From positions 1-30,350 of the forward strand of contig CAVZKL010000025.1 of assembly GCA_963775895.1 (NCBI GenBank): a stretch of 30,350 bases of DNA. Reading direction: 5' to 3'. Origin of the DNA: Candidatus Bathyarchaeota archaeon (GTDB lineage Archaea; Thermoproteota; Bathyarchaeia; Bathyarchaeales; Bathycorpusculaceae). Made by a program: the position numbers and the translations under genes. Position 1 is the stretch's first letter, and each line of letters starts with the position of its first letter. A model generated the notes under the pieces. The model did no database searches, was not told the DNA's origin, and worked only from the letters and a program-made list of their open reading frames with translations. Positions 7,551 through 28,524 of the stretch are shown in pieces.

Positions 7551-7566
7551 CGCAAAAGTTAAAAAG
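7551..7566 (+). promoter_or_regulatory. Putative BRE/TATA promoter of cdhABCDE
   Basis: cgcaaaagTTAAAAAg about 50 bp upstream of GTG 7614. Confidence 0.45.
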
Positions 7567-7613
7567 CTTCGAGAGCCACGTAACGTCTTCTGCGCCTCTG
7601 GTTGTGTTTGCGA

Positions 7614-9962: not shown

Positions 9963-9969
9963 AAGACGG

Positions 9970-10517: not shown

Positions 10518-10520
10518 CAG

Positions 10521-13146: not shown

Positions 13147-13163
13147 GACCGGAGTGAACTTGA

Positions 13164-14604
13164 ATGAGTGAAAGAGAAATCAAAGGGAAAGGCAGTGTAA
13201 GAGAACTGAGCCCCATAGAAGTCTACAAGCTCCTCCCGAAAACGAACTGCAAAGAGTGCGGCGAAGAGAACTGCATGGCCTTCGCCACAAGACTGGTCAA
13301 TCGTGAAGTGACCATTCAGAAATGCAAGCCGATCTTCACCAAAGAATACGAAAAAGCTTACGCGCAACTCGAAGACATGCTGAAGCCTCCCGTAAAAGAA
13401 GTTGCCATTGGCACGGAGGGCAAGGGTCTAAAGATCGGCGGAAAACTCGTCATGTACCGCCACGAATTCACTTATTCAAATCCAACAGCAATCGCAATAG
13501 ACGTCACCGACGAAATGTCAGAGGACGAAATCCTGAGCAGAGTGAAGAAAACCTCTGGCTTCACCTTCGAGTACATTGGGCAAACGCTGAAACTGGACAT
13601 GGTCGCAGTCCGCTCCACGTCAAACGACCCCGACAAATTCAAAGCAGTCGGTGAAAAAAGTCGCTGAAAACACGGAACTACCTTTGATACTATGTTCTTT
13701 GCAGCCAAACGTGTTAGAATCGGGACTCATGGCGATTCCAAAATCAAGACCACTTCTGTACGCGGCAACCAAGGACAACTGGAAAGAAATGGCAGAACTT
13801 GCCCTGATGTACAATTGTCCACTGACGATTTCTGCACCAGGTGACCTTAAACTGCTGAAATCCTTAGCGAAGACGCTTTTGGAGTACGGAGTTCAAGACC
13901 TCGTCTTAGATCCTGGAACGTTTCCAGACGAAGGCTTGGCCGACACGTTGAATAATTTCACGATGATCCGTAGAGCTGCATGCAAAAAAGGCGATGAGCT
14001 CTGCGGTTTTCCATTGCTGGGCGTTCCCATGATGGCATGGATACAAAAAGGTGAAGTCTCACAAGAGATCGCAAATTGGAGAGAGGCCTATCTAGCATCG
14101 ATGCTGATCGTCAGATACGCAGACGTTCTAATACTCCACAGCGTGGACGGCTGGTCTCTACTGCCGAACGTAGTATTGAGGCAAAACATCTACACGGATC
14201 CAAGAAAACCAGTCGCCGTCGCTCCAGGCTTGAAGACATTTGGAACTCTTGACGAAAACACACCAGTGATGTTCACGACCAACTTTGCGTTGACATACTA
14301 CACCGTGGCGAATGACATCGAGTCATCAGGGACAAGCGCCTACCTGCTCGTCGTAGACACCGAAGGCATAGCCGTGGACAGTGCAGTTGCGGGAAGAAAA
14401 CTGACAGCCGAAAAAGTTGCAGAGGCTCTGAAATCCTCTGGCATAGAAGGAAAGGTCAAACACAGAAAACTCCTGATCCCTGGAAAAGCAGCGCGGATAA
14501 GCGGGGAAATCGAAGAACTCAGCGGTTGGCAGGTGCTGGTTGGGCCTCGCGATTCATCGGAGATTCCGAAGTTCCTGAAAGAAAAATGGCAGCAGACAGC
14601 CTAA
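13164..14604 (+). CDS. cdhE: ACDS complex gamma subunit (corrinoid Fe-S protein large subunit); one extra base near 13650
   Basis: LLPKTNCKECGEENCMAFA..C in ORF 13164-13667. Removing one g gives FKAVVKKVAE into ORF 13651-14604 (IYTDPRKP, TTNFALTYY, VGPRDSS). Confidence 0.95.
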
Positions 14605-15092
14605 TTCTTCTTTTTTTGCCGCTCGGACTTTTTCGGCATTTTTGGCGTGGTGTCGAGGGCTTCACGGATGCTTTGAATTCGTTCAACCCGTTTCTTAGTG
14701 TTGATGTTGTTCTGAAGCAGCAGGACCTCTCTTGGTCTGCTGAAACGTTCAACCTCGCCGTTCTCCCTTTTCCTCACCATTTCTATGCAATCGTCAACGA
14801 TGCAGTTTAGGACACATGCGCCACAATAGACGCAGAGTTCTTCAGTAATTCCCAGCTCTCCCGCCTTCCAAAACAAAGCCTTCGTGGGACACGTCTTCAC
14901 GCAGAGATTGCAATCAATTCCCCTACAAGTCCTTTTGTTAATCCTGATATTCCCTTCAACAAAGAACTCCTTTATGCGCAGCGGAGCCAGCAGCTCTTCT
15001 CTTCTTTTCGCTTTTTCCAGTTCAGCGGTATCCGTCATGTCTTGAAAAATGTCAATGCTCGAAGGCTTGCTGGGCTTGCTTTGATTTGGCAT
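14601..15092 (-). CDS. 4Fe-4S dicluster (ferredoxin-like) protein with charged N- and C-terminal extensions
   Basis: CRGIDCNLCVKTCP and CVYCGACVLNC motifs; its stop overlaps the cdhE stop convergently. Confidence 0.8.
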   Translation of the reverse strand: MPNQSKPSKPSSIDIFQDMTDTAELEKAKRREELLAPLRIKEFFVEGNIRINKRTCRGIDCNLCVKTCPTKALFWKAGELGITEELCVYCGACVLNCIVDDCIEMVRKRENGEVERFSRPREVLLLQNNINTKKRVERIQSIREALDTTPKMPKKSERQKKKN

Positions 15093-15296
15093 TTAATTCA
15101 TCTTTCGATCGAGCATCCTTTTGAATTGTGTGGTCTTGGAATTATAATTACTTATCCTGAACGCATTGCAGAAAGACAAGGTCGAAGAACACATCAGCGT
15201 TGAAGGAGAGAATTGCTGGAGCATCGTAAGATACTTCAAGAGGAAGTTTATTACTGGGTCAGTATTCTCGTTTAACGATCGAGGTGATCCAGAAAA

Positions 15297-15476
15297 ATGT
15301 GTGAATTTACTGTTATCCTCAACGGGAAAGCTGTTTTCAAAGACGTGGTGTTCGCAAGAGTGGAACGTGGCAAAGTTGTTGTCAGGGACGTGCTTGGAGA
15401 ATCTAAAGAGTTCAAAGACTGCAACATCACAGAGGTCGACGTAAACTCGACGCGTTTGGTCTTATCAAGCCAATAA
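15297..15476 (+). CDS. cooT: CooT family nickel-binding chaperone (59 aa; absent from the ORF track)
   Basis: Manual translation: MCEFTVILNGKAVFKDVVFARVERGKVVVRDVLGESKEFKDCNITEVDVNSTRLVLSSQ*. It has the Met-Cys start, D(V/I)LGE and EVD patterns, SD GAGGTGA at 15281-15287, and lies near the cdh operon. Confidence 0.88.
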   Translation: MCEFTVILNGKAVFKDVVFARVERGKVVVRDVLGESKEFKDCNITEVDVNSTRLVLSSQ

Positions 15477-15505
15477 CCAAAATGTGTCCAGCCACTGTGT
15501 GCCAG

Positions 15506-17128
15506 CTATTTTCTGACTCCGCTTTTTTCAATCATCTTGGGCAAGACCGATTCGAAACCAACTGCCATCAAGTGCAGTCCTGCCGCATTCGTCGCCTTGT
15601 GAACATCATGAATCAAAGTAGCGAACGACTCGATGTTTTCTTCCAAGAACGCTTCCTTGCCCTTCTCCCTTGCTTTGCGTAGACGCTGTTCCAGTTCTGG
15701 CGGAACTTTGATTCCGGGAACAAACTTTATCATCCAGTCCATCATGGCCAACGATTTGAAAGGCGCTATGCCCAACAAAACCGGTGTTTTCAAGTAGGAC
15801 ACTGCGCTCATGAAACCTTCAGCCTGTTCCACGCTGTAGACGCATTGAGTCTGTATGAAATCCACTCCGAGCTTAACTTTTCTTTCAATCTTCAGGATTT
15901 CAGGTTCCAACGGGTCAGCATTGACTGAGGCACCGATTCCGATGTTGAATTTGGGCGCGTGTTCTATCTTGTTCCCGTTAAGGTCCACACCCTGGTCAAT
16001 CACTTTTCTCAGCATGTAAACCAACGTTGCAGAGTCCAAGTCAAAGACGGGCTTGGCCTGGGGCGCGTCACCAACAGTCGTGTAATCACCCGTTAAGGCA
16101 AGAATGTTCTTTATTCCAAGATTGCCCGCGGCCAACGCGTCGGAAAGCAGCGCCAAACGGTTTCTATCTCTTGTAGTCACTTGGAAGACAGCCTCGACCC
16201 CGGATTCTCTCTGCATTATGTACGAAGAGACAAGTCCATTGAAAAACCCGAACGACGTGGGGTTGTCCGTTACGTTGATTGCTGTGACATGTCCTTTCAG
16301 GATCTTCGCGCTTTCGATGACCTCATGCAGGTCGGTGGTTTTCATCGGCTCAAGCTCGCCCGTGAACACGAATTTTCCTTCTTGGATTTGTCTCATCAAT
16401 TCGCCGTAGGCTTCCCGTTTCACGTCAGCCTGAGCTTCAATCTCCTTCTCCGTTTTGGGTTTACTCTCGGCCAGTGCAACCATGTCCAGATTTCGCGGGT
16501 GTTCCGAGATTCTGTAATCGTGAGGTACCCTGAACTTTCTGAACAGGTCAAGTCTGTCTTTCTCTTTAAGACGGTTGTAGATCAAAACCCACGCACAATC
16601 ATTCTTCCAGCCACCTGCCTCACACTTTCCCTTCACTTGTCCACCGCACGGTCCGTTGAGAAGACTCTTGGCACACCGCGTTATAGGACAAATCCCGCCC
16701 GTCTCTCCGAGAAGACACTCTCCGCACGCTCTGCACTTTTCATGCATCGCGCCGTTTTCACGATCCTGTGACCCCAGAAAAACTGTGTCTTGAGCGGGAT
16801 AGACTGGAGTGTTGGGGAAGACTTCTGCAAGCGTCTGAACGCCCACGCCGCAAGACATAGATAAAACAGCGTCCACGTCTTGAAGTTGCTGTCCGAGCGC
16901 CGCATTGACTTCATAATTATCACATTGCTTTCCCATCGTTGTCGGCTTGCACACGAACTCCTTGTTCTGGAGTTTTCCACCCATTTCAACGAGCATGGCA
17001 AAAGTCTTGGCTTCCCTCAAGCCTCTTGGAGGAGTGGTGCAGCCGTCACACCCTACCACCAGAATCCTCTTGTGTGGAGCCAGAAGATGCAATATTTCTT
17101 CCAAGGGTTTTTCTTTCGTCATTATCAT
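15506..17128 (-). CDS. metF: Fused MetV-MetF methylene-tetrahydrofolate(-like pterin) reductase
   Basis: N-terminal MetV motifs: VGCDGC, QCD, SCGVG, CRACGEC..TGGICPITRCAKSLLNGPCGG..CE..CAW. C-terminal MetF motifs: GELEP, INVTDNP, RDRNRLAL, LALTGD, FIQTQ, GLHLM. Confidence 0.92.
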   Translation of the reverse strand: MIMTKEKPLEEILHLLAPHKRILVVGCDGCTTPPRGLREAKTFAMLVEMGGKLQNKEFVCKPTTMGKQCDNYEVNAALGQQLQDVDAVLSMSCGVGVQTLAEVFPNTPVYPAQDTVFLGSQDRENGAMHEKCRACGECLLGETGGICPITRCAKSLLNGPCGGQVKGKCEAGGWKNDCAWVLIYNRLKEKDRLDLFRKFRVPHDYRISEHPRNLDMVALAESKPKTEKEIEAQADVKREAYGELMRQIQEGKFVFTGELEPMKTTDLHEVIESAKILKGHVTAINVTDNPTSFGFFNGLVSSYIMQRESGVEAVFQVTTRDRNRLALLSDALAAGNLGIKNILALTGDYTTVGDAPQAKPVFDLDSATLVYMLRKVIDQGVDLNGNKIEHAPKFNIGIGASVNADPLEPEILKIERKVKLGVDFIQTQCVYSVEQAEGFMSAVSYLKTPVLLGIAPFKSLAMMDWMIKFVPGIKVPPELEQRLRKAREKGKEAFLEENIESFATLIHDVHKATNAAGLHLMAVGFESVLPKMIEKSGVRK

Positions 17129-17129
17129 T

Positions 17130-18368
17130 TCAAACAACTTCCTTTTTGTGCAATTCGTCTATTTTTTCTATGAACTTCCTAATGTGGTCGTCGAGGTCGC
17201 CGACGTTCTTGGGGGACACGAAACACATCTCAACCCTTTCTTCGAGTTTGACTTGGGCGAGAAGGTTCTTGAGCGATGTCACATGTTCCTCAGCTCTCTC
17301 GTTTCCATCTTCCAGTTTGCACTCGCCTTTCTTGCAAGCCGTAATGAGAACTCCGTCGAAGCCCTGACGCAATGCTTCCAACACGTGCAACGTATCAGCT
17401 CTGCCTGCGCAAGGAATCCCTGCGAACACGACGTTTTCCATGGTGCCATTCCCGTATGCGTCGAGATCTGAGAACTCGCTCCATTGGCAGGACAGAACAA
17501 GTATCACAGGTTTCTTCGTTTCTCGCTTCATCCTCGGCATTGATGAGCCGTAGTCGCGAATTGCTTCCGAAATCGTTTCGTACTCAAAACCGTCCAGTTT
17601 CACGGCCAGTGCCGGACACACTGCGACGCAGTCTCCACAGCCTGTGCATGCAATCGGATCAAGTTGGGGAACCTTCGAAGTCCCCATCGTTATCGCATCA
17701 TACGGGCAGATGTAGTTACAGTTTCCACATCCAACGCATTTGTTGCTGTCAATCTGCGCTTTGTTCGACCGCTTCGTTATGGTCAGAGTGTCAGGTTTGA
17801 AACCAAGCTGGGTCAACAAAGTCTGGGTCAGCAAGAGCCTGCGCGTGTCAATCCTGCTTCCTTCTTTGAATCGGCAGTACTTGTCTTCGCAAGGCATGAC
17901 GATCACTTTCTTTGTCTTCGATGCGAGCGCTTTGAGAATGAGTTCAGAAGGGACACGGCCGACGCAGGGCAAGCTTATTGAAATGAAATTGTCTGCCTTA
18001 AACTTTGCCAGCTCCTTCATTCTTTGGTTTTGAAAGGGGCTACTCCCGCGGCAGGTGAGCATAAGTTTGTCCGAGTTTTGTTCAGTCATTCTCTTGTTAA
18101 TGTAGCCTATCAGCGAATCAACGTTGTAGTAGATCGTGTCTATGGCCGAAGCTGGGCATGCACTTGAGCAGATACCACAAACCTGACACTTTTCCATGTT
18201 TAGCCTTACTTCTCCGGTCTTTTCTTCGACGGCGATAGCGTCGTAGGGACAGATAGAAGGACAGACAAGGCATCTGCTACAGCGGGTCTGATCTATTTTC
18301 ACGCTGTCTTCAGTCTTCGGTTCTACAATGACCTGCTCATTCATTTCAATTCTCTCAGAGTCTGTCAT
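17130..18368 (-). CDS. Tandem (2x[4Fe-4S] ferredoxin + MvhD/FlpD-like [2Fe-2S]) x2 protein
   Basis: Four CxxCxxCxxxCP motifs in two pairs. Each pair is followed by an MvhD-like domain (TCRGS..LPCVGRV..PCEDKYC..EGS; SCQWS..IPCAGR..GFDGVLITACKKGEC..GN). Its stop abuts the metVF start. Confidence 0.85.
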   Translation of the reverse strand: MTDSERIEMNEQVIVEPKTEDSVKIDQTRCSRCLVCPSICPYDAIAVEEKTGEVRLNMEKCQVCGICSSACPASAIDTIYYNVDSLIGYINKRMTEQNSDKLMLTCRGSSPFQNQRMKELAKFKADNFISISLPCVGRVPSELILKALASKTKKVIVMPCEDKYCRFKEGSRIDTRRLLLTQTLLTQLGFKPDTLTITKRSNKAQIDSNKCVGCGNCNYICPYDAITMGTSKVPQLDPIACTGCGDCVAVCPALAVKLDGFEYETISEAIRDYGSSMPRMKRETKKPVILVLSCQWSEFSDLDAYGNGTMENVVFAGIPCAGRADTLHVLEALRQGFDGVLITACKKGECKLEDGNERAEEHVTSLKNLLAQVKLEERVEMCFVSPKNVGDLDDHIRKFIEKIDELHKKEVV

Positions 18369-18570
18369 GGCAGACTGACAGCGCCAGTATTCTGGCGGCT
18401 AAATGTATCGCTTGTTTTGAAGCCTATAGAAAGATGATGTTCCCAAATAAAGATTACCCGCGGGTTATGCAGCTATCATCCATCGAATCGCCCTTGACGT
18501 TCAGACGGATGACCCGTCTGGTCGTCCATCAGACTTGAGAAATCATAAGCTGAAACAGTGAAAAGATTGG

Positions 18571-18592
18571 GTCAGCCAGCTGTCAGCCAGCT
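18571..18592. repeat. 11-bp perfect tandem repeat (gtcagccagct x2)
   Basis: Read directly from the sequence, just upstream of the putative frhB-like TATA box. Confidence 0.85.
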
Positions 18593-18598
18593 GATCTG

Positions 18599-18611
18599 TA
18601 AAGCTTAAATT
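18599..18611 (+). promoter_or_regulatory. Putative BRE/TATA of the frhB-like gene
   Basis: taaagcTTAAATt about 32 bp upstream of ATG 18642. Confidence 0.45.
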
Positions 18612-18641
18612 CGGGCCCCTTAAGGTAGAGGTTGATCTTTC

Positions 18642-19683
18642 ATGGGTTCATCGAGAACAGGTTTTCAAAGCACTTTGGGTGATAGCGTTGTGGACAAAGA
18701 CAGGTGCACCAATTGTTGCGCATGCGTGGTCGCCTGTCCGTTACAATTGTCTAGGTCCTGTCGAACAGAAGCCTAGCCTCTTGAAAGAGTGTCCGCAGTG
18801 CGGTATCTGCGAGAAAACTTGCCCGCAGTATGAATGGTCTTTGTCGGATGCAGAAAGGTTCACGTTTGGCAGGGCACGTAAAGCCGAGGAAACGTTTGGA
18901 GTCTATCGGCGCGTAGTCGTTTCTCGAGCAACTGACGGTGAGGTGCTGAGGGTTGGACAGGACGGTGGAGTTGCCACGGCTCTCCTATTGCATGCTCTGA
19001 AGAATGGCTTGATCGATCGTGCGGTTGTCTCTGGAATCGACCCTAACAAGCCCCTGTTCCCTGTTCCGAAAGTGGCGATCAGCGTTGAAGAGATTCTAGC
19101 CTGCGCTGGGACACGGTACTTTTATTCACCAAATCTTCTCGCACTGGCCGAGGCGATGAAAGGGAAGATTGGAATAGGCTTCGTTGGAACACCGTGCCAG
19201 ATCAAAGCCATCAGAAAAATGCAGTTGGCTGGGCTGAAGAAATATGGCTCGTTGAAGCTCCTCATCGGACTCATGTGTTCAGAATGCTATGATTATGATG
19301 GACTCGTGAAGAAACACCTTCACCAAGAACTAGGCCTTGATCCAAAAGACATCCTGAAGATCAGCATAAAGGGAAAAATGAACATAACAATGAAGAACGG
19401 ACAGACCAAGAGTCTTCCTCTGGCCGAAGTGAAGCAACATGCCAGAAAAAGTTGTGAATCGTGTTCTGACTTCAGCTCCGAACTAGCCGACATTTCGGTG
19501 GGAGGTCTAGGGTTGGACGGGTGGACGTTCACTATCATTCGATCAGAAAAAGGAGAAGAGGCCTTTTCAAACGCCGAAAAAGCTCGAGTCGTTCAGACCA
19601 GAAATGCTAGCGAAGAAATGCACGCGTTGAACTTGCTCACCAAACTCTCTGAGAAGAAAAGACGGCTTCAGCGTTCTCAATAA
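18642..19683 (+). CDS. Coenzyme F420 hydrogenase/dehydrogenase beta-subunit family protein (FrhB/FpoF-like) with N-terminal ferredoxin; one extra base near 18741
   Basis: ATG 18642 reads MGSSRTGFQSTLGDSVVDKDRCTNCCACVVACP, then shifts into YNCL..CPQCGICEKTCP, GQDGGVATALL, AGTRY, VGTPCQ, IGLMC, CESCSDFSSELADISVGGLG..GW. Confidence 0.9.
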
Positions 19684-19704
19684 TATTTTTCTTCTGACCT
19701 TTTT
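19684..19704 (+). terminator. Possible oligo-T terminator after the frhB-like gene
   Basis: tattttttcttctgacctttt immediately after the stop codon. Confidence 0.4.
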
Positions 19705-19760
19705 CGTATATCTTTCGTGACTTGAACGTTTAGAGCTTGTATATATCGTTGAGTAAGGAT

Positions 19761-19775
19761 GGAAGTTTTAATATA
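19761..19775 (+). promoter_or_regulatory. Putative BRE/TATA of etfBA
   Basis: ggaagTTTTAATAta; SD GGTGAG at 19814-19819 precedes TTG 19825. Confidence 0.55.
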
Positions 19776-19824
19776 GCACACGCGCGTTCGTTTTTTCAAT
19801 CAAAACTGACAATGGTGAGATCTC

Positions 19825-20614
19825 TTGAAGCGTATGCTCGTTTGCGTGAAACAGGCAGTTGATGTTACACAGTTGAAGGTCGACCCAGCAACAAGACAGT
19901 TAGTCACAGCCGGGGCTCCTAAGAAGATGAGCGATTTTGACAAGAATGCACTGGAGGAAGCTATCAAGATTAAAGAAAAGCTCGGAGGCGAGGTTGTGAC
20001 GCTGACTGTGGGTCATGAAGAAGCGAAGGCTAGTATTGCGGGAAGGATTAGCGATTGGTGCTGACAAAGCATACTGTGTCAATGATCTCGGTGTACAGGG
20101 AATTGACACAGGGGGGACAGCTTACGTTCTGGCAGAAATGGCCAAGAAGATAGGGGAATATGATCTCGTTCTTTGTGGTGATTCGTCTCTGGACAGTTTC
20201 TCTGGGCTTGTTGGGCCAAGACTTTCTGAAGTACTGAACCTGCCTCAAATAACTTCGGTGAAAAAGGTCACCGTTGAAGGTGACGCGGTCATTGCTGAGA
20301 GATCCCTCGAAGATGCAAGTGAGGTCGTCAAAGCAAAGATGCCTGCTTTGATTTCCGTCACACGTGAGATAAACCAACCGAGGATACCTTCACTTATGAT
20401 GATCATGAAGGCTTCAAAGAAGGAGATTGTAACTTGGTCTTTGAAAGACCTGAACGTTCCAGCGGAGAAGATCGGTTCAAGAATCGAAATCATTGACGTG
20501 CTTGCACCGAAAATGGAGAGAAAAAGAGTCAAGATCACTGGCGAATCGGTTCAGGAGATCGCGGAGAAACTGGCCAAGGCACTTGCCCAAGAGGGTGTCG
20601 TCGGGAGGAAGTGA
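19825..20614 (+). CDS. etfB: Electron transfer flavoprotein beta subunit; one extra base near 20028
   Basis: VCVKQAVD and DKNALEEAIKIKE; after the shift, LREGLAIGADKA, CGDSSLDSFSGLVGP, INQPRIPS. Confidence 0.92.
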
Positions 20615-20619
20615 TTGGT

Positions 20620-21585
20620 ATGAGCGAAAACAAGGGCATCTGGGTGTTCTCTGAAGTTTACGATCTGATTTTGGAGCTGCTCGGAAAAGGAAGGGAACTG
20701 GCAGACAGGACGAAGGACGAACTGTCAGCGATTCTAATTGGAAGTAACCTGCAAGACAAGGCGGCTGACCTGATAAAATACGGTGCAGACAAGGTATACA
20801 TTGTTGATGATCCTGGCCTCGAGCGTTTTCAATCTGAAACCTACTTGAGCATCCTCAGCAATCTTGCCGTCAATCATCCTCCGAAAACCATGCTGATAGG
20901 GTCAACGAGAAACGGTAAACCACTTGCAGCCAAACTTGCAACCCGTCTGGACGCAGGGTGCGTTCCTGATTGCACGCGACTGAGTATCGACGAAAATGAG
21001 CGGCTCGTCGGCGAACGGATAACTTACGGCGGAATCGCATTCGCTAGAATCACATTCAAGTCTAAACTTCAAATAGCCACTGTTCCTTCAAGAGCTTTTG
21101 ACAAACCTGAAAAGAAGGATCGCACAGGGCAGATAGAAAAGCTGGACTTCAAAGCTGAAGGCCCAAGGACTGAGGTAATTGAAAGGAAACCGCTCGAGAC
21201 TTCAAGCGTGCGGATCGAGGATGCTGCTTACATAGTCTCTGGTGGAAGGGGTTTAGAGAAAAGGGATGATGTAGCGCTGCTGGAAGAGTTGGCAGGGGTC
21301 ATCGGTGGGCAAGTAGGATGTACAAGACCGCTTGTCGAAGATAGGAAATGGTTCACTGATTGGATTGGGCTCTCTGGACACAAGGTGAAACCAAAACTGT
21401 ACATAGCTTGTGGTGTTTCAGGAGTAATCCAACACGTTGCGGGAATACGCGACTCCAAGATAATAGTAGCGATAAACAAGGATCCGGAAGCACCGATATT
21501 CGAAATTGCAGATTATGGGGTTGTGGGCGACCTTTACGAAGTGGTTCCAGCCTTGAAAGAAGCATTGAAGAAACTGCTTCAGTAA
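20620..21585 (+). CDS. etfA: Electron transfer flavoprotein alpha subunit
   Basis: GADKVY, IVSGGRG, GCTRP, IGLSGHKVKPKLYIACGVSGVIQHVAG, AINKDPEAPIF..ADYGVVGDL. Confidence 0.95.
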   Translation: MSENKGIWVFSEVYDLILELLGKGRELADRTKDELSAILIGSNLQDKAADLIKYGADKVYIVDDPGLERFQSETYLSILSNLAVNHPPKTMLIGSTRNGKPLAAKLATRLDAGCVPDCTRLSIDENERLVGERITYGGIAFARITFKSKLQIATVPSRAFDKPEKKDRTGQIEKLDFKAEGPRTEVIERKPLETSSVRIEDAAYIVSGGRGLEKRDDVALLEELAGVIGGQVGCTRPLVEDRKWFTDWIGLSGHKVKPKLYIACGVSGVIQHVAGIRDSKIIVAINKDPEAPIFEIADYGVVGDLYEVVPALKEALKKLLQ

Positions 21586-21589
21586 TTCA

Positions 21590-21600
21590 CTTTTTCTTTT
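21590..21600 (+). terminator. Possible oligo-T terminator after etfA
   Basis: ctttttctttt just after the stop, in a convergent intergenic region. Confidence 0.45.
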
Positions 21601-21716
21601 GCCTTATTCAGAATTACATAGAAGAGTAAATTCCAAAAAGCTGAACCATGGTTTTCACAAGGTGTAACGAAACCAGTGAGCACCAGTCAGGCATTTTGGG
21701 TATCAAGTTTGTGCTC

Positions 21717-22943
21717 TTACTTGTATGCTATGAAGTCTTTGCCCAACAGTTCTCGGGCGATGACTGTTCGCTGTATGTTTGTGGCTCCCTCTGCACCCAC
21801 GCAGTAGGACATTATTCCTCTTAGGCCCATTTCGAGGGGGCATTCTTTGGTGTACCCGTATGCTCCAAGCCAGATCATGGCGTGTTTGTATATGTCGAAG
21901 GCCAGATGAGGTGCCAAGAGCTTGCACGCAGCAATCATCTTTGTTACTTCAAGTGGCGAGAACTTGTTTTCTCTGTAGCGCATGTCCATCATCCATGCGG
22001 TTCGGTACGTTAGTGATTTCAAAGCTTCTAGGTGCGCCCAATCATCCGCCATTTCAAACTGGATGCCTTGGAACTTGCCTATTGGTTTTCCGAAGGCCTT
22101 TCGTTCCTTTACGTAATCCATACCAACGTCAAGTGCGCGTCTGCCGGCGCCAACACAAACAGCTGAGATAAGTATTCGGGCAGTATCGAATCCTTCCATG
22201 GTTAAGTAAAAGCCTTTATCAACGTCACCCAAGCGGTAGCTGTCTGGTACCTTCACGTTTTTCATTAAGAAGCCACCAGTTGAGATTGCCATCCTTCCCA
22301 TGTCATCGTAACGTTTGTTGACTTCCACGCCGGGTGCGTTTATCGGAACGTAGAAGCCTGTCATTCCTCGATGTTGGGCTTCCGGAGGAGCGGGTGAAGT
22401 CCTTGCAACCACAAAATACCCTCCGCCTATCCTTTTTGCTTCTTCAGTGCCACTGATGTACGTTTTTTCGCCGTTGAGAATCCATTCATCTCCTGTTTTC
22501 TTTGCCGTTGTTTTGAAGGCCGCGACATCAGAGCCTCCGCCGGCTTCTGTCGAGCCGATGCCTATGAAAGCGTCCCCCTTTATGGCTGGTCGTATTACGT
22601 CGTTTCTTACTTTCTCGCTCGCGTGTCTGTCAACGACGTACCCCCAGGATGATTCTACAAGCCACAGTACAGGTAAAGCGATGCTCACATCAGCGTACGC
22701 AAGTTCTTCCGCTGCGATGCACGCTGTGACCCAGTCGGCACCTGTTCCACCGTGCTCTTGCGGTGCCGTCATTATGTTCAATCCCATCTCACCCATGCTT
22801 CTCAGAATCGACTGTGGGATTGCGCCGTGCGTGTCCATTTCTCTTATTTTCTCTATTGGCAGGTTTTTTTCGCACCATTCTCGCACGGCTTTTCTGAAGA
22901 GTTCTTGTTCTTCGGTGAAGCCAAATTCTACCAATCCTTTCAC
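21717..22943 (-). CDS. Acyl-CoA dehydrogenase
   Basis: FTEEQELFR, TEAGGGSD, WILNGEKTYIS, ERKAFGKPIGKFQGIQF, LGAYGY, EGATNIQR.VIAR. Confidence 0.94.
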   Translation of the reverse strand: MKGLVEFGFTEEQELFRKAVREWCEKNLPIEKIREMDTHGAIPQSILRSMGEMGLNIMTAPQEHGGTGADWVTACIAAEELAYADVSIALPVLWLVESSWGYVVDRHASEKVRNDVIRPAIKGDAFIGIGSTEAGGGSDVAAFKTTAKKTGDEWILNGEKTYISGTEEAKRIGGGYFVVARTSPAPPEAQHRGMTGFYVPINAPGVEVNKRYDDMGRMAISTGGFLMKNVKVPDSYRLGDVDKGFYLTMEGFDTARILISAVCVGAGRRALDVGMDYVKERKAFGKPIGKFQGIQFEMADDWAHLEALKSLTYRTAWMMDMRYRENKFSPLEVTKMIAACKLLAPHLAFDIYKHAMIWLGAYGYTKECPLEMGLRGIMSYCVGAEGATNIQRTVIARELLGKDFIAYK

Positions 22944-22968
22944 CTTTTGCTGAAGTCTGGAGCAGGGA

Positions 22969-22980
22969 GTATAAAAGTTG
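22969..22980 (-). promoter_or_regulatory. Putative TATA box of the acyl-CoA dehydrogenase gene (likely near-leaderless transcript)
   Basis: The minus strand reads caacTTTTATAc about 27 bp upstream of GTG 22943. Confidence 0.5.
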
Positions 22981-22989
22981 TTTGGAATC

Positions 22990-23865
22990 CTAACTCGAAA
23001 TCTTTGCTAGAAGTTCTTCAGCCGGACTCTGGTTCAGGTTCAAACCGAGCTTCTTTTCGTCAATGCCCAATGCCAGTCCGAGCAGCTGCGAAAAATAGAC
23101 TACTGGAACGTTGAGGTTCGCGCCGACAGTTGTCCCGGCCTCTTTCTGTTTAGCGTCAAACATTAATTGGCAATCTGGACATGAGACAACCATTCCCCCC
23201 ACGCCGAGTTTTTGCACGGCTTTAAGTTTGGATCCCGCAAGCGAGAGCGCAGAGTCAGGGTGACTGCGCATCAGTGCCGCACCACAACAATCCAGCTTTT
23301 CTGCATAATCAACAGGTTCAGCACTCAGTGCGATCAACAACTCGTCGAGTTTCCGCGGGTTCTCCCCGTCATCAACCCTTCCAAGATCGCTGTACCGGAT
23401 TATCTGGCAGCCCACGTGAGTGGCCACTTTCAAACCTTTAAGTGGCCTTTTCACGGCTTTCTTGATTTTTGTTAGTCCGACAAAATCGTGTAGCAGATCG
23501 ATCGTATGCCAGATTCTTATGTTTGGGTCATATTGTAGGTTTTCCTCTTTCAGCAAGTCGATGATTTTCTGAGCGGTTTTGGGATTGTTCTTCATTGCGT
23601 CTTGGGCTTCGGAAATTGTGAAGTGACAACGATTGCACGGGACAAGAAGGTTTTCTGAACCTGTCAGGTTTGCGAGAGCTAGGATCCTAGCTGCCAAGAA
23701 ATTGGCCGTGAATTCGTTGACACTCTTCACCGGATCACCACAGCAAAAAGACTCGGCCAAATCGACCAGTTCAACGTTCAGTTTCGGAAGAGTCTCACGG
23801 AGGGACATTTCGTACGCGAACTGGCTTGTTTGTATACAGCAACCCCAAAAGACGGCGATCTTCAT
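22990..23865 (-). CDS. hdrB: Heterodisulfide reductase subunit B (CCG domains)
   Basis: FWGC, CCG..PCNRC, HVGC, CCGA and SCPDCQLMFD..Q..PVVYFSQLLGLALG. Confidence 0.93.
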   Translation of the reverse strand: MKIAVFWGCCIQTSQFAYEMSLRETLPKLNVELVDLAESFCCGDPVKSVNEFTANFLAARILALANLTGSENLLVPCNRCHFTISEAQDAMKNNPKTAQKIIDLLKEENLQYDPNIRIWHTIDLLHDFVGLTKIKKAVKRPLKGLKVATHVGCQIIRYSDLGRVDDGENPRKLDELLIALSAEPVDYAEKLDCCGAALMRSHPDSALSLAGSKLKAVQKLGVGGMVVSCPDCQLMFDAKQKEAGTTVGANLNVPVVYFSQLLGLALGIDEKKLGLNLNQSPAEELLAKISS

Positions 23866-23866
23866 T

Positions 23867-24352
23867 CTATCTTTCCTCCATGGCTTTCATGAACGCGGCT
23901 TGAAAGCTCTCTTTCGGAGCTTTGATCTTGGGCAAATGCAGACATTCACGATCTATTGTCTCCATCTTCTTGGTGACAATCTTCTGAGGAGGTTCAGCCA
24001 ACCCTGTTTCGAGTATGTGTGAAACTATTTTGAGGTACGTTTCTGGCACTTTCGCCTCTTTTTCAACGGCGAGGTTTCTGAGTGCCATTATCACGTGGTA
24101 AGGTGAGGCTTTTTGTGGACATCTTTGCACGCATTTTAGGCATGTGGCGCACGTCCAGATTATATCTGAGGTGGGCAACTCATCAACAAAGCCGAGGTTG
24201 ACGAGTTTCACTATTTCATGGGGCTTTAATTCCAAGAGTTTTAGAGCTGTGCATCCACTCGTACATTTTATGCATTGGAAACAGTTCACCAGTTCTCTTT
24301 TCCTAAGCTTCGAGAGGATCTTGTCCCGCGACTCGAAGTTAGGTTTAGCCAT
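23867..24352 (-). CDS. hdrC: Heterodisulfide reductase subunit C
   Basis: CFQCIKCTSGC, IWTCATCLKCVQRCP and VIMALRNLA. Start at ATG 24352 or 24358, which avoids overlap with hdrA. Confidence 0.92.
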   Translation of the reverse strand: MAKPNFESRDKILSKLRKRELVNCFQCIKCTSGCTALKLLELKPHEIVKLVNLGFVDELPTSDIIWTCATCLKCVQRCPQKASPYHVIMALRNLAVEKEAKVPETYLKIVSHILETGLAEPPQKIVTKKMETIDRECLHLPKIKAPKESFQAAFMKAMEER

Positions 24353-24377
24353 TGACATCAAATCGATGAGGCTCAAA

Positions 24378-26378
24378 CTATCTTCCTCCTTTGACGCAGG
24401 TCTCATTGAGAGCTGCTTGAACTTGTGTAAGAACTTGGCTGTAACTATACTGCTGAATCTTAATCGCCTCCGTTGGGCAAGCAGAACTGCAGGCGCCGCA
24501 TCCTTGACACATGGCTTCGATAACTTCGGCTGTCAGTTTTTCTTTGCCTTTCACGGTTTCGGTTTTCATCTCTATTGCCATAAATGGACAGACTGACTCA
24601 CATATTCGACATCCGCTGCACAAGTCCTTGTCGATCACGGCTTTCAGTGGTTCGAGCTCAATTTCACCGCATGATAGGAGGTCTATTGCTTTCGCCGCGG
24701 CTCCACTCGCCTGTGCCACAGTATCGGGGATATCTTTGGGTCCTTGGCATGCTCCAGCAAGAAATACTCCAGCCATTGAGCTTTCTAGTGGTCGCAGTTT
24801 CGGGTGTGCTTCAAGCAGGAATCCGTCTGCACTTCTTGACGCGTGGAAGAGAGCACTGATCTGCTCGAGATCGTCGTTCGGGACAAGCCCCGTGCCTAGT
24901 ACCACCATGTCTGCATGTGCCTCTAGAAGCTTATTTGTCCCTTTATCGTAAACATCAAAGTACAGAGACCCGTCTGGAGCTTCGTGAATTTCTGATGGCA
25001 TACCAGCTATGAAGTCTATATCCATGTCCCTCGCGCGCCTGTAGAATTCTTCGTAACCTTTGCCGAAGGCCCGCAGATCAATGTAGCAGACGAGTATTCT
25101 CAGTGGTTCGTGCGTTTTTTCACGGGCGAGAATAGCTTGTTTTAGTGTCACCATGCATCCTACGCGGCAACAATAATCATGGAAGCGTTTGTCGCGAGAA
25201 CCCACGCACTGTATGAACACTATGGTTTTGGGCGTCTTTCCGTCTTTTGGAGTGAGTATCTTTCCGCTTGTTGGTCCGGACGCGTCTGATATTCTCTCAA
25301 ATTCTATGCTGGAAATAACGTTTTTGAAACGCCCGTAACCAAGTTCCGTAATTCTGGTGGCGTCGAACACTTCTGACCCGACGGCGATGACTATTCCGCC
25401 CACTTTAACTTGGACGGTTTCGGGTTGTTGTTCAAAATCTATCGCTTTAGGTTCACAGGCTGTTTGGCACTTGCCACACACACCTTTGGCGTGTTTGAGC
25501 CTTAAGCAATGCTCCGGATCGATGATTGCGATCTTCGGAACTGCGTGCGCCGAAAAAACGTACACTGCCCTTCTTTCCGTGAGATTTTCATTGAATGCGT
25601 CTGGGACTTTCACTGGGCAAACTTTGGCGCATTCTTCACATCCAACACATCTGTTTTGGTCAACATATCTGGGCTTTTTGATGATGGTCACGTTATAGTT
25701 TCCGACGAATCCTTCTACGCCGGTCACTTCAGCGTTCGTCATCAGAGTGATGTTTCCGTTTTTGGCCACGTCAACCATTTTCGGTGTCAGAATGCAAGCA
25801 CTGCAATCAAGGGTTGGAAAGGTTTTGTCCAACTGGGCCATGCGCCCGCCGATGCTAGGGGCCTTTTCAACCAAGTAGACTTTGAATCCAGCGTTAGCCA
25901 AGTCGAGTGAAGCCTGTATGCCTGCTATGCCGCCGCCAACGACGAGAACACTTTTTTCCACGCTTACCTTTCGTTTTTCCAGGGGTTCAAGAAGTCGAGC
26001 GCGAGCTACGCCCATTCGTACGAGTGTCTTGGCCTTTTCTGTTGCTTTCTCAGGCTCATTTGTGTGCGCCCAAGAAACGTGTTCCCTGAGGTTGACTATT
26101 TCGGTCAGGTACGGGTTGAGTCCTGCTTCTGCAATCGCTTTCCTGAACGTATCCTCGTGCATACGTGGAGAACAGGTTGCGATAACTATTCTGTCAAGTT
26201 TGTTGAATTTTATATCATTTTGGATGAGTCTTTGTCCTGGTTCAGAGCACATGTAAGTGTAATGTTTGACCGTTACCACTTCTGGCAGGGTCTTGGCGTA
26301 TTCAGCCACTTTTGCGACGTCGACGACGCCGGCAATGTTTAATCCGCAATGGCAGACGTATACGCCTATTCTTGCCAT
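24378..26378 (-). CDS. hdrA: Heterodisulfide reductase subunit A (FAD/Fe-S, bifurcating family)
   Basis: GVYVCHCG.NI, YMCS, CSPRMHE, GGGIAG, IGGRMAQLDKTFPTLDCSACIL, QCVGSRD, HPKLRP, GACQGPKDIP, plus inserted and C-terminal ferredoxin motifs. Confidence 0.97.
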   Translation of the reverse strand: MARIGVYVCHCGLNIAGVVDVAKVAEYAKTLPEVVTVKHYTYMCSEPGQRLIQNDIKFNKLDRIVIATCSPRMHEDTFRKAIAEAGLNPYLTEIVNLREHVSWAHTNEPEKATEKAKTLVRMGVARARLLEPLEKRKVSVEKSVLVVGGGIAGIQASLDLANAGFKVYLVEKAPSIGGRMAQLDKTFPTLDCSACILTPKMVDVAKNGNITLMTNAEVTGVEGFVGNYNVTIIKKPRYVDQNRCVGCEECAKVCPVKVPDAFNENLTERRAVYVFSAHAVPKIAIIDPEHCLRLKHAKGVCGKCQTACEPKAIDFEQQPETVQVKVGGIVIAVGSEVFDATRITELGYGRFKNVISSIEFERISDASGPTSGKILTPKDGKTPKTIVFIQCVGSRDKRFHDYCCRVGCMVTLKQAILAREKTHEPLRILVCYIDLRAFGKGYEEFYRRARDMDIDFIAGMPSEIHEAPDGSLYFDVYDKGTNKLLEAHADMVVLGTGLVPNDDLEQISALFHASRSADGFLLEAHPKLRPLESSMAGVFLAGACQGPKDIPDTVAQASGAAAKAIDLLSCGEIELEPLKAVIDKDLCSGCRICESVCPFMAIEMKTETVKGKEKLTAEVIEAMCQGCGACSSACPTEAIKIQQYSYSQVLTQVQAALNETCVKGGR

Positions 26379-26534
26379 CAGTCAGCCATCCGAAACCGTG
26401 TTTTATTGAATTCGGCTTGACGGTCTCTATTATGTTTTCTGCAAAGATTCCTGATGTTCTAACGTTGTTATTCACGTGTCCGATTTTGACGGTTAGACGA
26501 AGCTATATGCTGATAGGGTACTTTCATTTCCATT

Positions 26535-27039
26535 CTAATACACCGAGACCTTCGCTACGCCCTTTGATTTTGAGCAATTCTTGAATGAGCTCTCCAGGGA
26601 TCTGTTTTTCCACAATCAAGGTGAGTCTGGGTTCGGGGGAAAGTTCTGGATCATCCACTATAGCTTGTCTTACGCTCAGTCCATTGTTTGCAAGGATCGT
26701 TGCTGCACTCGACAGGATGCCGGTGGCTCTAGCATCTACGGGTGTTATTTCGGCAACTCCGAGGTTTAGATGTCTCGCAACCTCTTTGAGCGAGTATCCA
26801 GCAGATCTAATGCCCTCAAACAATAATCTGAGGTCACGATTGGAGCTGATTGCAGCTATTGTTTCTTTGACCGTTCGTCTGTCTACGCTAGCGACGCGGC
26901 CTATGCGGACCGGTGGAATCTCGATTTCGTTGAGATATATCTTGCCGTTTCTTAGGCTTAGCCCATTTTCTATGAGGACACGCGTCACTTTGAGTCTTTC
27001 TGGATGTCCCTCAAAGTATTCTTTTACGCTGTTCCACAT
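26535..27039 (-). CDS. trpY: TrpY-like transcription regulator (N-terminal HTH + C-terminal ACT, COG2150 type); one extra base near 26561, probable true stop at 26535
   Basis: MW.....F..HPERLKV..LIENG, EI....IGRVASVDRRTV, GILS......NGLSVRQAIVDDPE. The corrected end is KIKGVAKVSVY*. Divergent from trpB2 across TGTACA-like boxes. Confidence 0.8.
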
Positions 27040-27054
27040 ATTCCGTTTCCTTTA

Positions 27055-27137
27055 TGTACATTTTTGTGCAATAAAGTATAAATATGTTCGCGTGATATTT
27101 TGTGTTCTTAACGTACATACATGTGCATAAAGGTACA
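27055..27137. promoter_or_regulatory. TRP-box-like operator array with divergent promoter
   Basis: TGTACA-tttt-TGTGCA (27055-27070); CGTACA-taca-TGTGCA-taaa-GGTACA (27112-27137); TATAAATA at 27077-27084. TGTACA is the known TrpY box consensus. Confidence 0.75.
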
Positions 27138-27150
27138 TTGGTGAACTGAA

Positions 27151-28509
27151 TTGGCACAATTGAACGACCGAAAATACTTCACAATGTTGGACTCGGATGA
27201 CATGCCGACTTCATGGTACAACATTCAAGCAGACCTTCCCGATGCTCTGCCTCCTCCTCTAGACCCGACGACTCTCAAGCCAGTCGATCCTCGAATGCTT
27301 GAACGGATATTCGCAAAAGAGCTTGTAAGACAGGAAGCAAGTACGGAGAGATACATCAGGATTCCAGACGAGGTTTTTGACGCCTACTTGGCTCTTCCCC
27401 GGCCGACTCCATTATACCGTGCCAGAAGGCTCGAAAAACACCTCAAGACGCCCGCCCAAATCTATTTCAAGTGTGAAAACTTCAGCCCCACAGGAAGCCA
27501 CAAGAACAACACAGCTCTTGCACAGGCTTATTACAACAAGAAGCAGGGAATAGAAGGATTGGTCACTGAAACAGGAGCTGGACAATGGGGCACGTCTCTG
27601 GCTCTAGCCACTGCACTCTTCGAGTTAAAGTGTCGAATCTACATGGTTCGAATAAGCTATCAACAGAAGCCAGGTAGAAGAATTCTCGCCCAATTATACG
27701 GTGCAGAAATGTTTCCATCTCCAAGTGACAACACTGATTTCGGCCGAAGACTACTGAATGCAGATCCAAATCATCCGGGAACACTCGGAATAGCCATAAC
27801 CGAGGCAATTGAAGACACCTTAGCTCATGATGACACGCGTTATTCGCTTGGTTCAGTCCTAAACCACGTTCTTATGCATCAGACGATCATTGGCTTAGAG
27901 GCAAAGAAACAGTTCGATCTTCTCGACGTAAAACCGGACGTGATCTGCGGCTGCATAGGCGGAGGCTCCAACTACGGTGGCTTCTGTTTCCCCTTCATGA
28001 AGGATAAATTGGACGGCAAGACTGACGCGGAATTCGTCGCCTGTGAATCAAGGGCGGTTCCACACACCACCAGAGGCATCTACCAGTACGATTTCGGCGA
28101 CACGGGCAAGATGACTCCTCTCCTAAAGATGTTGACAATAGGGCATGACTACGCATGTCCACCTGTCCATGCTGGTGGCTTGAGATACCATGGAATGGCT
28201 CCGTTGCTATCTTACTTGCTTTACAAAGGATATGCGCGTTCCGTCGCTTACGGTCAAAAGGAGGTTTTTGACGCTGCCAAGCTTCTAATCCAAACGGAGG
28301 GCTTGATTCCTGCTCCAGAAACAACACACAGCTTGAAGTTCGTCGTAGACGAGGCATTGAACTGCAGGAAGACCGGTGAAAAGAAGGTGATAGCCATGAA
28401 CTACAGTGGACACGGTCTGCTTGACTTGTCCGCTTATGAACAGTATTTGGCAGGAAGACTCGTGGAATATGAGCCTGCCAAAATAGAAGTTGCAAGCGTC
28501 GGCCATTAG
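27151..28509 (+). CDS. trpB2: Tryptophan synthase beta chain, type 2 (TrpB2)
   Basis: WYNIQADLP, RPTPLYRA, SPTGSHK, TETGAGQWG, YSLGSVLNHV, GGGSN, HAGGLRYHG, SGHGLLD. No trpA in the window. Confidence 0.95.
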   Translation: MAQLNDRKYFTMLDSDDMPTSWYNIQADLPDALPPPLDPTTLKPVDPRMLERIFAKELVRQEASTERYIRIPDEVFDAYLALPRPTPLYRARRLEKHLKTPAQIYFKCENFSPTGSHKNNTALAQAYYNKKQGIEGLVTETGAGQWGTSLALATALFELKCRIYMVRISYQQKPGRRILAQLYGAEMFPSPSDNTDFGRRLLNADPNHPGTLGIAITEAIEDTLAHDDTRYSLGSVLNHVLMHQTIIGLEAKKQFDLLDVKPDVICGCIGGGSNYGGFCFPFMKDKLDGKTDAEFVACESRAVPHTTRGIYQYDFGDTGKMTPLLKMLTIGHDYACPPVHAGGLRYHGMAPLLSYLLYKGYARSVAYGQKEVFDAAKLLIQTEGLIPAPETTHSLKFVVDEALNCRKTGEKKVIAMNYSGHGLLDLSAYEQYLAGRLVEYEPAKIEVASVGH

Positions 28510-28524
28510 AAAGGTGGAGACCTG

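Follow-up and report, generated by a model that had tools for sequence, protein, structure and literature searches.

A fused MetV-MetF beside acetyl-CoA synthase genes and a probably separate heterodisulfide reductase unit on one Bathyarchaeia contig

The stretch of DNA analysed here (the window) is the whole of contig C25, 30,350 bp, from a metagenome-assembled genome (MAG G000; 1.77 Mb in 28 contigs, 88.8% complete, 3.5% contaminated) of the archaeal class Bathyarchaeia. It carries a fused MetV-MetF methylene-tetrahydropterin reductase (MetVF) between the genes of acetyl-CoA synthase (ACDS) and a group of genes for heterodisulfide reductase (Hdr), acyl-CoA dehydrogenase (ACAD) and electron-transferring flavoprotein (ETF). 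With moderate confidence, we read this arrangement as two independently conserved redox modules brought together by a lineage-specific rearrangement, in the first of which MetVF likely serves ACDS on tetrahydromethanopterin (H4MPT) by way of an iron-sulfur adaptor and an HdrA. Module A (5870-19683) would comprise cooC-cdhABCDE, a ferredoxin (Fd), the fused MetV-MetF, a co-translated adaptor of the form (Fd-MvhD)x2 and an FrhB-like protein. Module B (19826-26378) would comprise hdrA-hdrC-hdrB-acd convergent with etfB-etfA, and thus a canonical bifurcating HdrABC with an ACAD and a bifurcating-type ETF. An earlier reading made from the letters of the DNA alone (the sequence-only reading) had joined hdrABC, frhB, etfBA and acd to metVF as one module. 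Pfam scans of 32 chosen open reading frames, on which our gene identities rest and whose positions are given in window coordinates, recovered every gene that it had named.

Conservation of gene order in relatives

Gene order in relatives separates the two modules. We examined 11 loci, 10 in records named Bathyarchaeia and one in a record labelled as an Acidiferrales bacterium that is probably mis-binned. The cdh genes lie within 10 kb of metVF in seven of these loci, and in three of the remaining four the contig breaks off less than 2 kb beyond metVF; hdrABC, etf and acd were found within 10 kb of metVF in none of the 11. Orthologues of the window hdrB (69-82% identical) lie 178 kb, 266 kb and more than 500 kb from metVF in the relatives G001-G003, and on another contig in G004. 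In each of the four relatives examined, hdrA-hdrC-hdrB-acd still converges on etfB-etfA, with the same trpY-trpB2-serK-like-degT flank as in the window, and in G003 and G004 the unit also adjoins PALP and/or POR genes of the kind seen at the window's left end. Set against G004, the window contains a 15.5-kb DUF166-PPase-cooC-cdh-fd-metVF-mvhD2-frhB block inserted between porA and etfB. The synteny comparison that the sequence-only reading had itself proposed therefore finds hdr, etf and acd unlinked from metVF (0 of 11 loci; unlinked in four of four relatives), and an FrhB orthologue was not found in three of the five relatives searched (G001, G003 and G072), so that the single module it described is not supported.

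The junction of the two units is real in nature yet lineage-specific. Near-identical DNA occurs in metagenomes of wetland, peat and freshwater sediment from 10 studies; among the data sets listed for 17000-22000, none is of RNA. The frhB-etfB junction is spanned by contigs of X4 (17301-21106), X6 (17578-20527) and X3, from three studies, which rules out an assembly chimera at that point. The 107-nt spacer between frhB and etfB (19684-19792) is exchanged for 102 other letters in X1 and X3 contigs, and this intergenic region varies between populations. For the left junction, between POR and DUF166 near 3611-4172, none of the listed pieces spans the site with at least 31 letters on each side.

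The composition of module A itself differs between lineages. The double Fd-MvhD gene stands directly upstream of metVF in six of the 11 loci, those whose MetVF is 79-83% identical to that of the window, and in the lineages at 64-69% identity a divergent NfnB-like-Fd-MvhD fusion replaces it. In the sister lineages G004 (locus L083, C24:231500-251499), G005 and L025, frhB, mer, cofE/cofD, cooC, cdhABCDE, fd, metVF and the NfnB-like-Fd-MvhD fusion make up a single Wood-Ljungdahl supercluster some 20 kb long, seen at the loci L083, L029 and L025. Mer and MetVF thus share one cluster in sister lineages, which argues that both serve the same one-carbon (C1) pool. No Mer was found in G001, G002 or G003 (MetVF 81-83% identical), of which G002 and G003 are single-chromosome records. 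The lineage of the window (G000-G003) appears, from these gene contents, to have lost Mer and to carry the double Fd-MvhD in place of the NfnB fusion.

The fused MetV-MetF, its adaptor and the FrhB-like protein

The sequence-only reading had described metV and metF as separate genes; they are one reading frame of 543 aa on the minus strand (15506-17137), with the MetV part N-terminal (PF12225, residues 113-208, E 2.5e-31) and the MetF part behind it (PF02219, residues 249-539, E 1.5e-28). A profile search of the contigs identified this as the sole MetF of the genome. By sequence, solved structures were matched at 27-29 bits only, by eukaryotic methylenetetrahydrofolate reductases (MTHFR), so a fold search was needed; in the AF2 model (mean pLDDT 73.5) the MetF part forms a barrel like that of T. 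thermophilus MTHFR (Foldseek E 2.2e-15, TMt 0.84). E261 aligns with the Glu of the LEFFPP motif of human MTHFR and D351 with the Asp of its RGD motif, both of which we take to be catalytic, and 12 Cys of the MetV part are invariant across 36 sequences. Chloroflexota and Omnitrophica MetF share 42-45% identity with the MetF part, and proteins of Asgard and Altiarchaeota share 47-61%. In a midpoint-rooted tree of 39 chosen rows, which held no ANME-1 or Syntrophoarchaeum rows, an archaeal clade of Bathyarchaeia, Asgard and Altiarchaeota sequences (support 100/97) stands apart from Chloroflexota and Omnitrophica, and fused MetV-MetF forms occur at two places. The best NCBIfam model of MetVF is that of a bifunctional homocysteine methyltransferase/MTHFR, at 206 bits under a cut-off of 453.

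Overlapping metVF by 8 nt, the adaptor gene mvhD2 (17130-18368, minus strand) encodes a 412-aa protein with two FlpD stretches and Fer4 domains, that is, a 2x[4Fe-4S] ferredoxin-MvhD unit repeated twice. Each MvhD half holds four Cys at equal spacing (106/135/160/165 and 294/320/345/350), and among NCBIfam models the protein is matched best by HdrA2, in its C-terminal Fd-MvhD part (positions 569-774 of 777, 199 bits). Translational coupling of an MvhD-domain protein to MetVF points to an HdrA as its partner. Across the class, in a survey that scored 15 candidates per genome and whose absences are therefore soft, the double Fd-MvhD family occurs in 24 of 121 genomes and abuts MetVF in seven. 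A protein specific to MetVF is ruled out, since 13 of those 24 genomes gave no MetVF match. Away from MetVF it precedes NfnB-like genes in seven of the eight loci fetched, with HdrA within 5 kb in two of these. We read the double Fd-MvhD as a putative general adaptor between a dehydrogenase module and HdrA. At one such locus, L075 (G013:C55:80000-95000), a Pfam scan placed the double Fd-MvhD with NfnA-like, NfnB-like, TrxR-like and HdrD-like (Fer4+CCG) genes and an HdrA::MvhD fusion of 787 aa, with EtfBA-like genes 1 kb away.

Divergent from mvhD2 lies the gene of an orphan FrhB-like F420-binding iron-sulfur flavoprotein (18679-19683, plus strand; PF04422 and PF04432). Its best PDB match is 8RIU_B (175 bits), and it scores 206 against the FrhB equivalog, under the cut-off of 332. 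It is the single copy in the genome and stands alone between mvhD2 and etfB, with no frhA or frhG alongside. FrhB-like genes also adjoin metVF in L025 and L029, there beside mer or F420 genes.

The Hdr-ACAD-ETF unit

HdrA (24378-26378, minus strand, 666 aa) matches the HdrA of 8RVU over its full length (753 bits), colinear over residues 3-661 including the inserted ferredoxin domain, as expected of a canonical methanogen-type bifurcating flavoprotein. Its E361, K413 and C195 align with E356, K409 and the ligand Cys197 of 5ODC_A, and an E/K pair is given as a signature of the bifurcating HdrA flavin in the excerpts of PMC9430772 that we draw on. The best NCBIfam model is HdrA2, matched at positions 1-643 of 777 with a score of 881 against a cut-off of 1100. 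The hdrA gene overlaps hdrC (23867-24406, minus strand; Fer4 families) by 29 nt, and a gap of 1 nt separates hdrC from hdrB (22990-23865, minus strand; CCG family). HdrB keeps both CCG motifs (Cys 9/10, 41, 42, 77, 80 and 153, 193, 194, 229, 232) and matches methanogen HdrB structures over its full length at 154-166 bits. There is no MvhD gene alongside this hdrA, in the window or in the related loci L040-L043, so that the combination of MvhD with a donor module (Mvh or Fdh) encoded beside methanogen-type HdrABC is not seen here.

The acd gene (21717-22943, minus strand; three ACAD Pfam domains) begins 46 nt downstream of hdrB. Its product has 1UKW, rat SCAD and, in third place, CarC as best PDB matches, and its NCBIfam matches all fall under their cut-offs; it is an ACAD of generic short- or medium-chain type. 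Convergent with it on the plus strand are etfB (19826-20614, read directly, with a 1-nt frameshift near 20033) and etfA (20611-21585; PF01012 and PF00766), which overlap by 4 nt. EtfA scores 250 bits with CarE, 219 with LctC, 204 with 7KOE, 204 with 4KPU and 196 with 5OL2 against 139 for 1EFV, and the EtfB orthologue of L040 scores 172 with CarD, 165 with 5OL2_B and 163 with 4KPU_B (range 131-172) against 109 for human ETF-beta. By these scores, both subunits appear closer to bifurcating than to non-bifurcating ETFs.

Upstream of hdrA, a gene for a TrpY-family regulator lies divergent from a TrpB2-like PLP enzyme gene, followed by a weak SerK/SbnI-like open reading frame (26524-29166), and the three genes stand beside hdrA in each of the four relatives compared. 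The first of these, orf171 (26524-27039), was rejected as a possible opening gene of the hdr operon, since it encodes a regulator of the TrpY family (176.9 bits; cut-off 180) and forms a divergent pair with the TrpB2-like gene.

Methyl branch and Hdr complement of the genome

The methyl branch encoded elsewhere in the genome is of H4MPT type. The inventory that the sequence-only reading had called for recovered Mch, intact on contig C17, two Ftr, an MtdA/B-type dehydrogenase (Mpt_N protein) near Ftr, and FwdC adjoining Mch. Mer was not found in the 88.8% complete genome (top score 75 bits, cut-off 349), and profile searches of the genome did not find F420-type Mtd, FolD, Fhs or McrA. The sequence-only reading had named a methionine-biosynthesis MetF alongside a functional Mer as grounds against itself; no functional Mer was found here. 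CofD and CofE of F420 biosynthesis are present, as is an ADP-forming acetyl-CoA synthetase (C6:21652-22995). A second copy of mch (C27:62972-63906) is broken in two frames and holds an internal TAG.

The contig lacks mer and a [NiFe] hydrogenase large subunit, as had been noted from its sequence, and whole-genome searches matched other contigs only; the genome holds three [NiFe] large subunits. Six HdrA copies are present, and those on C6, C10 and C17 have MvhD fused or adjacent. On C6 (8946-19982), two domain-permuted hdrA genes, each followed by MvhD, precede hdrC, hdrB and a [NiFe] hydrogenase large subunit gene, and this is the only other hdrC-hdrB pair of the genome. The C6 hydrogenase therefore has its own hdrA-mvhD-hdrCB set, so that a hydrogenase of the Mvh type does not need the Hdr of the window; the possibility, raised earlier, that the window HdrABC is the partner of an Mvh hydrogenase encoded elsewhere thereby loses its footing. 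On C10 (64752-68569), an NfnB/GltD-like gene lies directly upstream of HdrA plus MvhD, and on C17 (4554-8944) two HdrA genes stand in tandem, the second fused to MvhD.

Distribution across the class

We sampled 121 Bathyarchaeia genomes of at least 80% completeness, this one included. CdhC was found in 93, Mer over its cut-off in 36 and MetVF in 51, about 10 of them in the fused form; both Mer and MetVF occur in 15. Within the 93 CdhC-positive genomes, 20 hold Mer without MetVF, 31 hold MetVF without Mer, 14 have the two together and 28 have neither. A strict either/or of Mer and MetVF is ruled out by the 15 of 121 genomes with both and by the 28 CdhC-positive genomes with neither. Where both are present, the two lie within 7 kb of each other in four of 15 genomes, and they are neighbours also in G004, G005 and L025.

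Among 29 further loci with acd orthologues, HdrC-HdrB lies directly upstream in four and Etf genes alongside in 10. G013, a genome rated 100% complete, keeps the hdrCB-acd/etf block and gave no match to MetVF, Mer or CdhC.

Flanking genes, transcription units and sequence quality

The apparently inserted block opens, at 4172-5020, with genes for a DUF166 protein, which weakly resembles the DfsP family of selenoproteins, and for an inorganic pyrophosphatase (PPase). Module A starts with two CooC-like nickel-insertion ATPases (5870-7479, plus strand; CbiA/NifH-type Pfam matches), a pair that precedes cdhA likewise in L019, L020, L025, L026 and L083. All on the plus strand, there follow cdhA (7602-9962; Prismane), cdhB (9970-10488; CO_dh), cdhC (10521-11933; CdhC and ACS_CODH_B_C), cdhD (11917-13146; CdhD) and cdhE (13164-14604; assigned in the Pfam scan), the last split by a frameshift near 13648-13667. 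The sequence-only reading placed metVF directly beside cdhABCDE; the two are neighbours, but a gene on the minus strand for a 163-aa 2x[4Fe-4S] ferredoxin (14601-15092; Fer4 families, nine Cys) lies in between, downstream of metVF. The same ferredoxin is found downstream of metVF in four of the 11 loci (L019, L020, L023 and L026). That reading also had the redox genes on one strand, which is correct for hdrACB-acd and mvhD2-metVF, both on the minus strand, but not for the intervening frhB and etfBA, which lie on the plus strand.

The spacing of the genes fits at least three transcription units rather than one. A scan of 14500-27200 returned 12 sigma-70 promoter-like sites against 10.7 expected and 13 terminator-like sites against 13.4 expected, counts that carry no information, from a model that does not suit an archaeon.

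Frameshifts split four genes of the window: a TrpB-like PALP gene (216-1105), porA (2470-3611), cdhE and etfB. One base at 13648 in cdhE is missing from the contigs of run X1 (depth 20.3 of 31.9), as is one base at 20033 in etfB (depth 32.5 of 32.5), and an extra G behind 10466, at the end of cdhB, is present in the contigs of all four runs compared. Relatives carry unsplit versions, with cdhE in a single frame and an EtfB of 262 aa in L040, and the frameshifts are probably assembly indel errors rather than strain-specific pseudogenes. The end of C25 (25935-30350) overlaps the start of contig C13 (1-4415) at 98.5% identity, with 65 mismatches and one gap; either the contigs join there or two strains are represented.

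Comparison with known systems

Among the known systems closest to module A is the Hdr-type, or 'fourth type', methylenetetrahydrofolate reductase MetVF-HdrCBA-MvhD of Moorella thermoacetica and Sporomusa ovata, for which we rely on excerpts of PMC9430772 and PMC9012536. As far as those excerpts describe them, these systems share with the window a MetF barrel with a Cys-rich MetV, an MvhD-type [2Fe-2S] domain encoded with metVF, and HdrA, HdrB and HdrC in the genome; the electron donor is not settled in either case. The window differs in having a fusion of metV with metF, an MvhD carried on a double Fd-MvhD protein of its own, and an hdrACB that lies outside the metVF operon and is unlinked from it in relatives. 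The acetogen HdrA is described in PMC9430772, within the portion used here, as doubled or GltD-bearing, with extra TrxR/GltD domains and no inserted ferredoxin domain, whereas the window HdrA is of the methanogen type with the inserted ferredoxin. Also unlike in the acetogens, the likely C1 carrier in the genome of the window would be H4MPT.

An archaeal MetF in place of Mer, perhaps acting on H4MPT, has been proposed for ANME-1 and Ca. Syntrophoarchaeum in the parts of PMC9012536 and PMC10322722 that we consulted, which also put MetF homologues of Bathyarchaeota in an ANME-1-type group and describe MetFV-HdrA-MvhD clusters in Syntrophoarchaeum. Judged by the same parts, the window genome resembles those organisms in having an archaeal H4MPT pathway without a detected Mer, a MetV adjoining MetF, and few, if any, further tetrahydrofolate (H4F) genes. 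It differs from them in that no Mcr or Acr was found, in that the gene is fused, lies beside ACDS and comes with a double Fd-MvhD adaptor, and in that sister Bathyarchaeia hold Mer and MetVF in one cluster. The ideas of MetF in place of Mer (ANME-1, Syntrophoarchaeum) and of an Hdr-type MetVF are therefore already published. In the literature searched, we found neither the combination of a fused MetVF, a double Fd-MvhD and a neighbouring ACDS nor hdrACB-acd/etfBA described for Bathyarchaeia, although these genes may appear in the tables of PMC7886697 and PMC8407382; the words 'MetF', 'Hdr' and 'Etf' are all missing from the text of a 2025 review of Bathyarchaeia (PMC12694404).

For module B, the nearest analogy is the class II benzoyl-CoA reductase found in Geobacter metallireducens, in which, according to the excerpt of 10.64898/2026.04.10.717634 available to us, HdrB-like BamD reduces an ETF that in turn reduces crotonyl-CoA through butyryl-CoA dehydrogenase in vitro. 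Like BamDEF-ETF as described there, the window pairs, by its genes, an Hdr-type bifurcating flavoprotein and an HdrB-like subunit with non-cubane clusters with an ETF that may feed an ACAD. Unlike that system, the window has neither the tungsten subunits BamBC nor BamGHI, its ETF resembles the bifurcating type, and its HdrABC is genuine, with identity to methanogen enzymes in the 57% class by alignment. Bcd-EtfAB and caffeyl-CoA reductase CarCDE (PDB 5OL2, 6FAH) give the top scores for EtfA and EtfB, with CarC ranked third for the ACAD; the window EtfA lacks the N-terminal ferredoxin domain of CarE, and acd is, unlike in those systems, co-oriented with hdrACB at 46 nt.

HdrA2B2C2 of Methanosarcina acetivorans is an F420H2-dependent bifurcating Hdr. 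The window resembles it in that HdrA2 is the best NCBIfam model of both HdrA and adaptor and in that an FrhB-like F420 protein is encoded nearby. Against this likeness, the HdrA score stays below the cut-off of that model, the MvhD part sits on a separate, duplicated protein encoded with MetVF, and no metabolism of coenzymes M and B is evident (no McrA found). Unlike in FrhABG, frhA and frhG are missing beside the FrhB-like gene.

Proposed roles and alternatives

The linkage of metVF to cdh, together with the failure to find Mer, FolD or Fhs in the genome, makes a role of MetVF at the methylene/methyl-pterin step plausible. MetVF would most likely interconvert methylene- and methyl-H4MPT for the neighbouring ACDS, with electrons passing through the iron-sulfur clusters of MetV and the predicted four [4Fe-4S] and two [2Fe-2S] clusters of the adaptor to or from a flavoprotein of HdrA type. 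From its domain content, the enzyme would not be driven directly by NAD(P)H. In module B, ETF-ACAD may take the high-potential electrons of HdrB, by analogy with the class II benzoyl-CoA reductase. That the two modules work together cannot be read from the order of their genes. Of the proposal that MetVF replaces or supplements Mer, possibly on H4MPT, the enzymatic part thus stands as a hypothesis, given the single MetF beside ACDS and the failure to find Mer, while its coupling to the neighbouring Hdr as one module does not.

Several observations weigh against this picture. We know of no MetF shown to use H4MPT, and a search of the genome did not find RFAP synthase, which stands at the first step specific to H4MPT biosynthesis. 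In the class sample, neither Mer nor MetVF was found in eight of the 10 other CdhC-positive members of the window genome's own family, part of the 28 such genomes counted above, and six of the 51 MetVF genomes, including the 100% complete G072, gave no CdhC match. MetVF is not a general gap-filler for Mer, and where the two coexist, it supplements Mer rather than replacing it. As the genome is incomplete, Mer could lie in the missing part. The independence of the modules is also challenged from within the genome: the window HdrA is the sole HdrA of six without MvhD alongside, the double Fd-MvhD is the sole MvhD without HdrA alongside, and the two match complementary parts of one model (HdrA2 1-643 and 569-774).

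That complementarity of an orphan HdrA and an orphan MvhD is common ground of two explanations that would make the whole region one machine. The sequence-only reading saw a single Moorella-like Hdr-coupled MetVF complex, with F420H2 as one input, by way of FrhB, and acyl-CoA oxidation as the other, by way of ACAD and ETF, and coupling organic-acid oxidation to acetogenesis. In its favour, the window packs all the parts into 11 kb, the junction is borne out by independent contigs, and F420 biosynthesis genes are present. We nevertheless hold it unlikely: the linkage was seen in this lineage only, the units lie on different strands, FrhB orthologues are missing from the searches of G001, G003 and G072, and frhB of the sister lineages lies by mer or cof genes. 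The acyl-CoA/enoyl-CoA couple is very positive, at about -10 mV, and so could not power the reduction of methylene unless energy came from elsewhere; the ETF moreover resembles bifurcating ETFs, which normally reduce enoyl-CoA, and a flow of electrons from ACAD through ETF to MetVF finds no support. The second explanation is one supercomplex with the flow reversed. In it, MetVF-(Fd-MvhD)x2 would take electrons off methyl-H4MPT and pass them to HdrA at its bifurcating FAD, with a low-potential outlet to ferredoxin and a high-potential one through HdrC and HdrB to ETF-ACAD and enoyl-CoA. The conserved linkage of hdrB, acd and etf is in keeping with this, as is BamD, which hands its high-potential electron to ETF (excerpt of 10.64898/2026.04.10.717634). 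We would give it a slim chance, given that the modules are unlinked in relatives, that G013 keeps module B without MetVF, that HdrB retains both CCG motifs of a disulfide reductase, and that the ETF of the precedent is non-bifurcating whereas that of the window resembles bifurcating ones. It is similarly a long shot that the rearrangement united three parts of one soluble bifurcating machine, with the MetVF-adaptor as methyl-H4MPT-oxidising donor on HdrA and with ferredoxin and ETF-ACAD-enoyl-CoA, not heterodisulfide, as acceptors; if true, this would answer what Hdr does in a non-methanogenic archaeon and how a Wood-Ljungdahl pathway without Mer is tied to ferredoxin.

Two further explanations concern MetVF itself. 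It could be an anabolic methylene-H4F reductase for methionine, apart from Wood-Ljungdahl flux, in a genome whose methyl branch is incomplete. To our knowledge, every characterised MetF uses H4F, and the best NCBIfam model, the missing RFAP synthase, the CdhC-positive genomes with neither enzyme and the MetVF genomes without a CdhC match all lean the same way. The searches of the genome returned no FolD or Fhs to supply methylene-H4F, however, cdh accompanies metVF in seven of 11 loci, as does mer in several lineages, and an iron-sulfur/MvhD adaptor accompanies MetVF instead of an NAD(P)H site, which together make this role highly doubtful. Equally, Mer might sit in the unassembled roughly 11% of the genome, leaving MetVF a supplementary part as in the sister lineages; the coexistence of both enzymes in 15 of the 51 MetVF genomes, and in G004 and G005, fits that view. 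No Mer was found in the closest relatives G001, G002 and G003, two of them single-chromosome records, and we give this explanation little credence. Two independently conserved modules, with MetVF acting for ACDS, thus remain the reading that we favour.

Significance

Bathyarchaeia are among the most abundant archaea of anoxic sediments and peat, and the acetogenesis proposed for them depends on a Wood-Ljungdahl pathway in which Mer is often apparently missing. A comparative study, in the excerpt used here, speaks of an 'alternative and unknown complex' in this pathway (PMC8407382). The fused MetVF with its double Fd-MvhD adaptor beside ACDS is a concrete candidate enzyme for the Mer-less step. 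In the 28 CdhC-positive genomes with neither enzyme, the methylene/methyl step is unexplained by Mer or MetVF. The comparison with relatives also corrects an over-reading of the window, in that hdr, etf and acd make up a conserved unit of their own, and this hdrACB-acd/etfBA unit offers a lead to the role of heterodisulfide reductase in archaea that make no methane.

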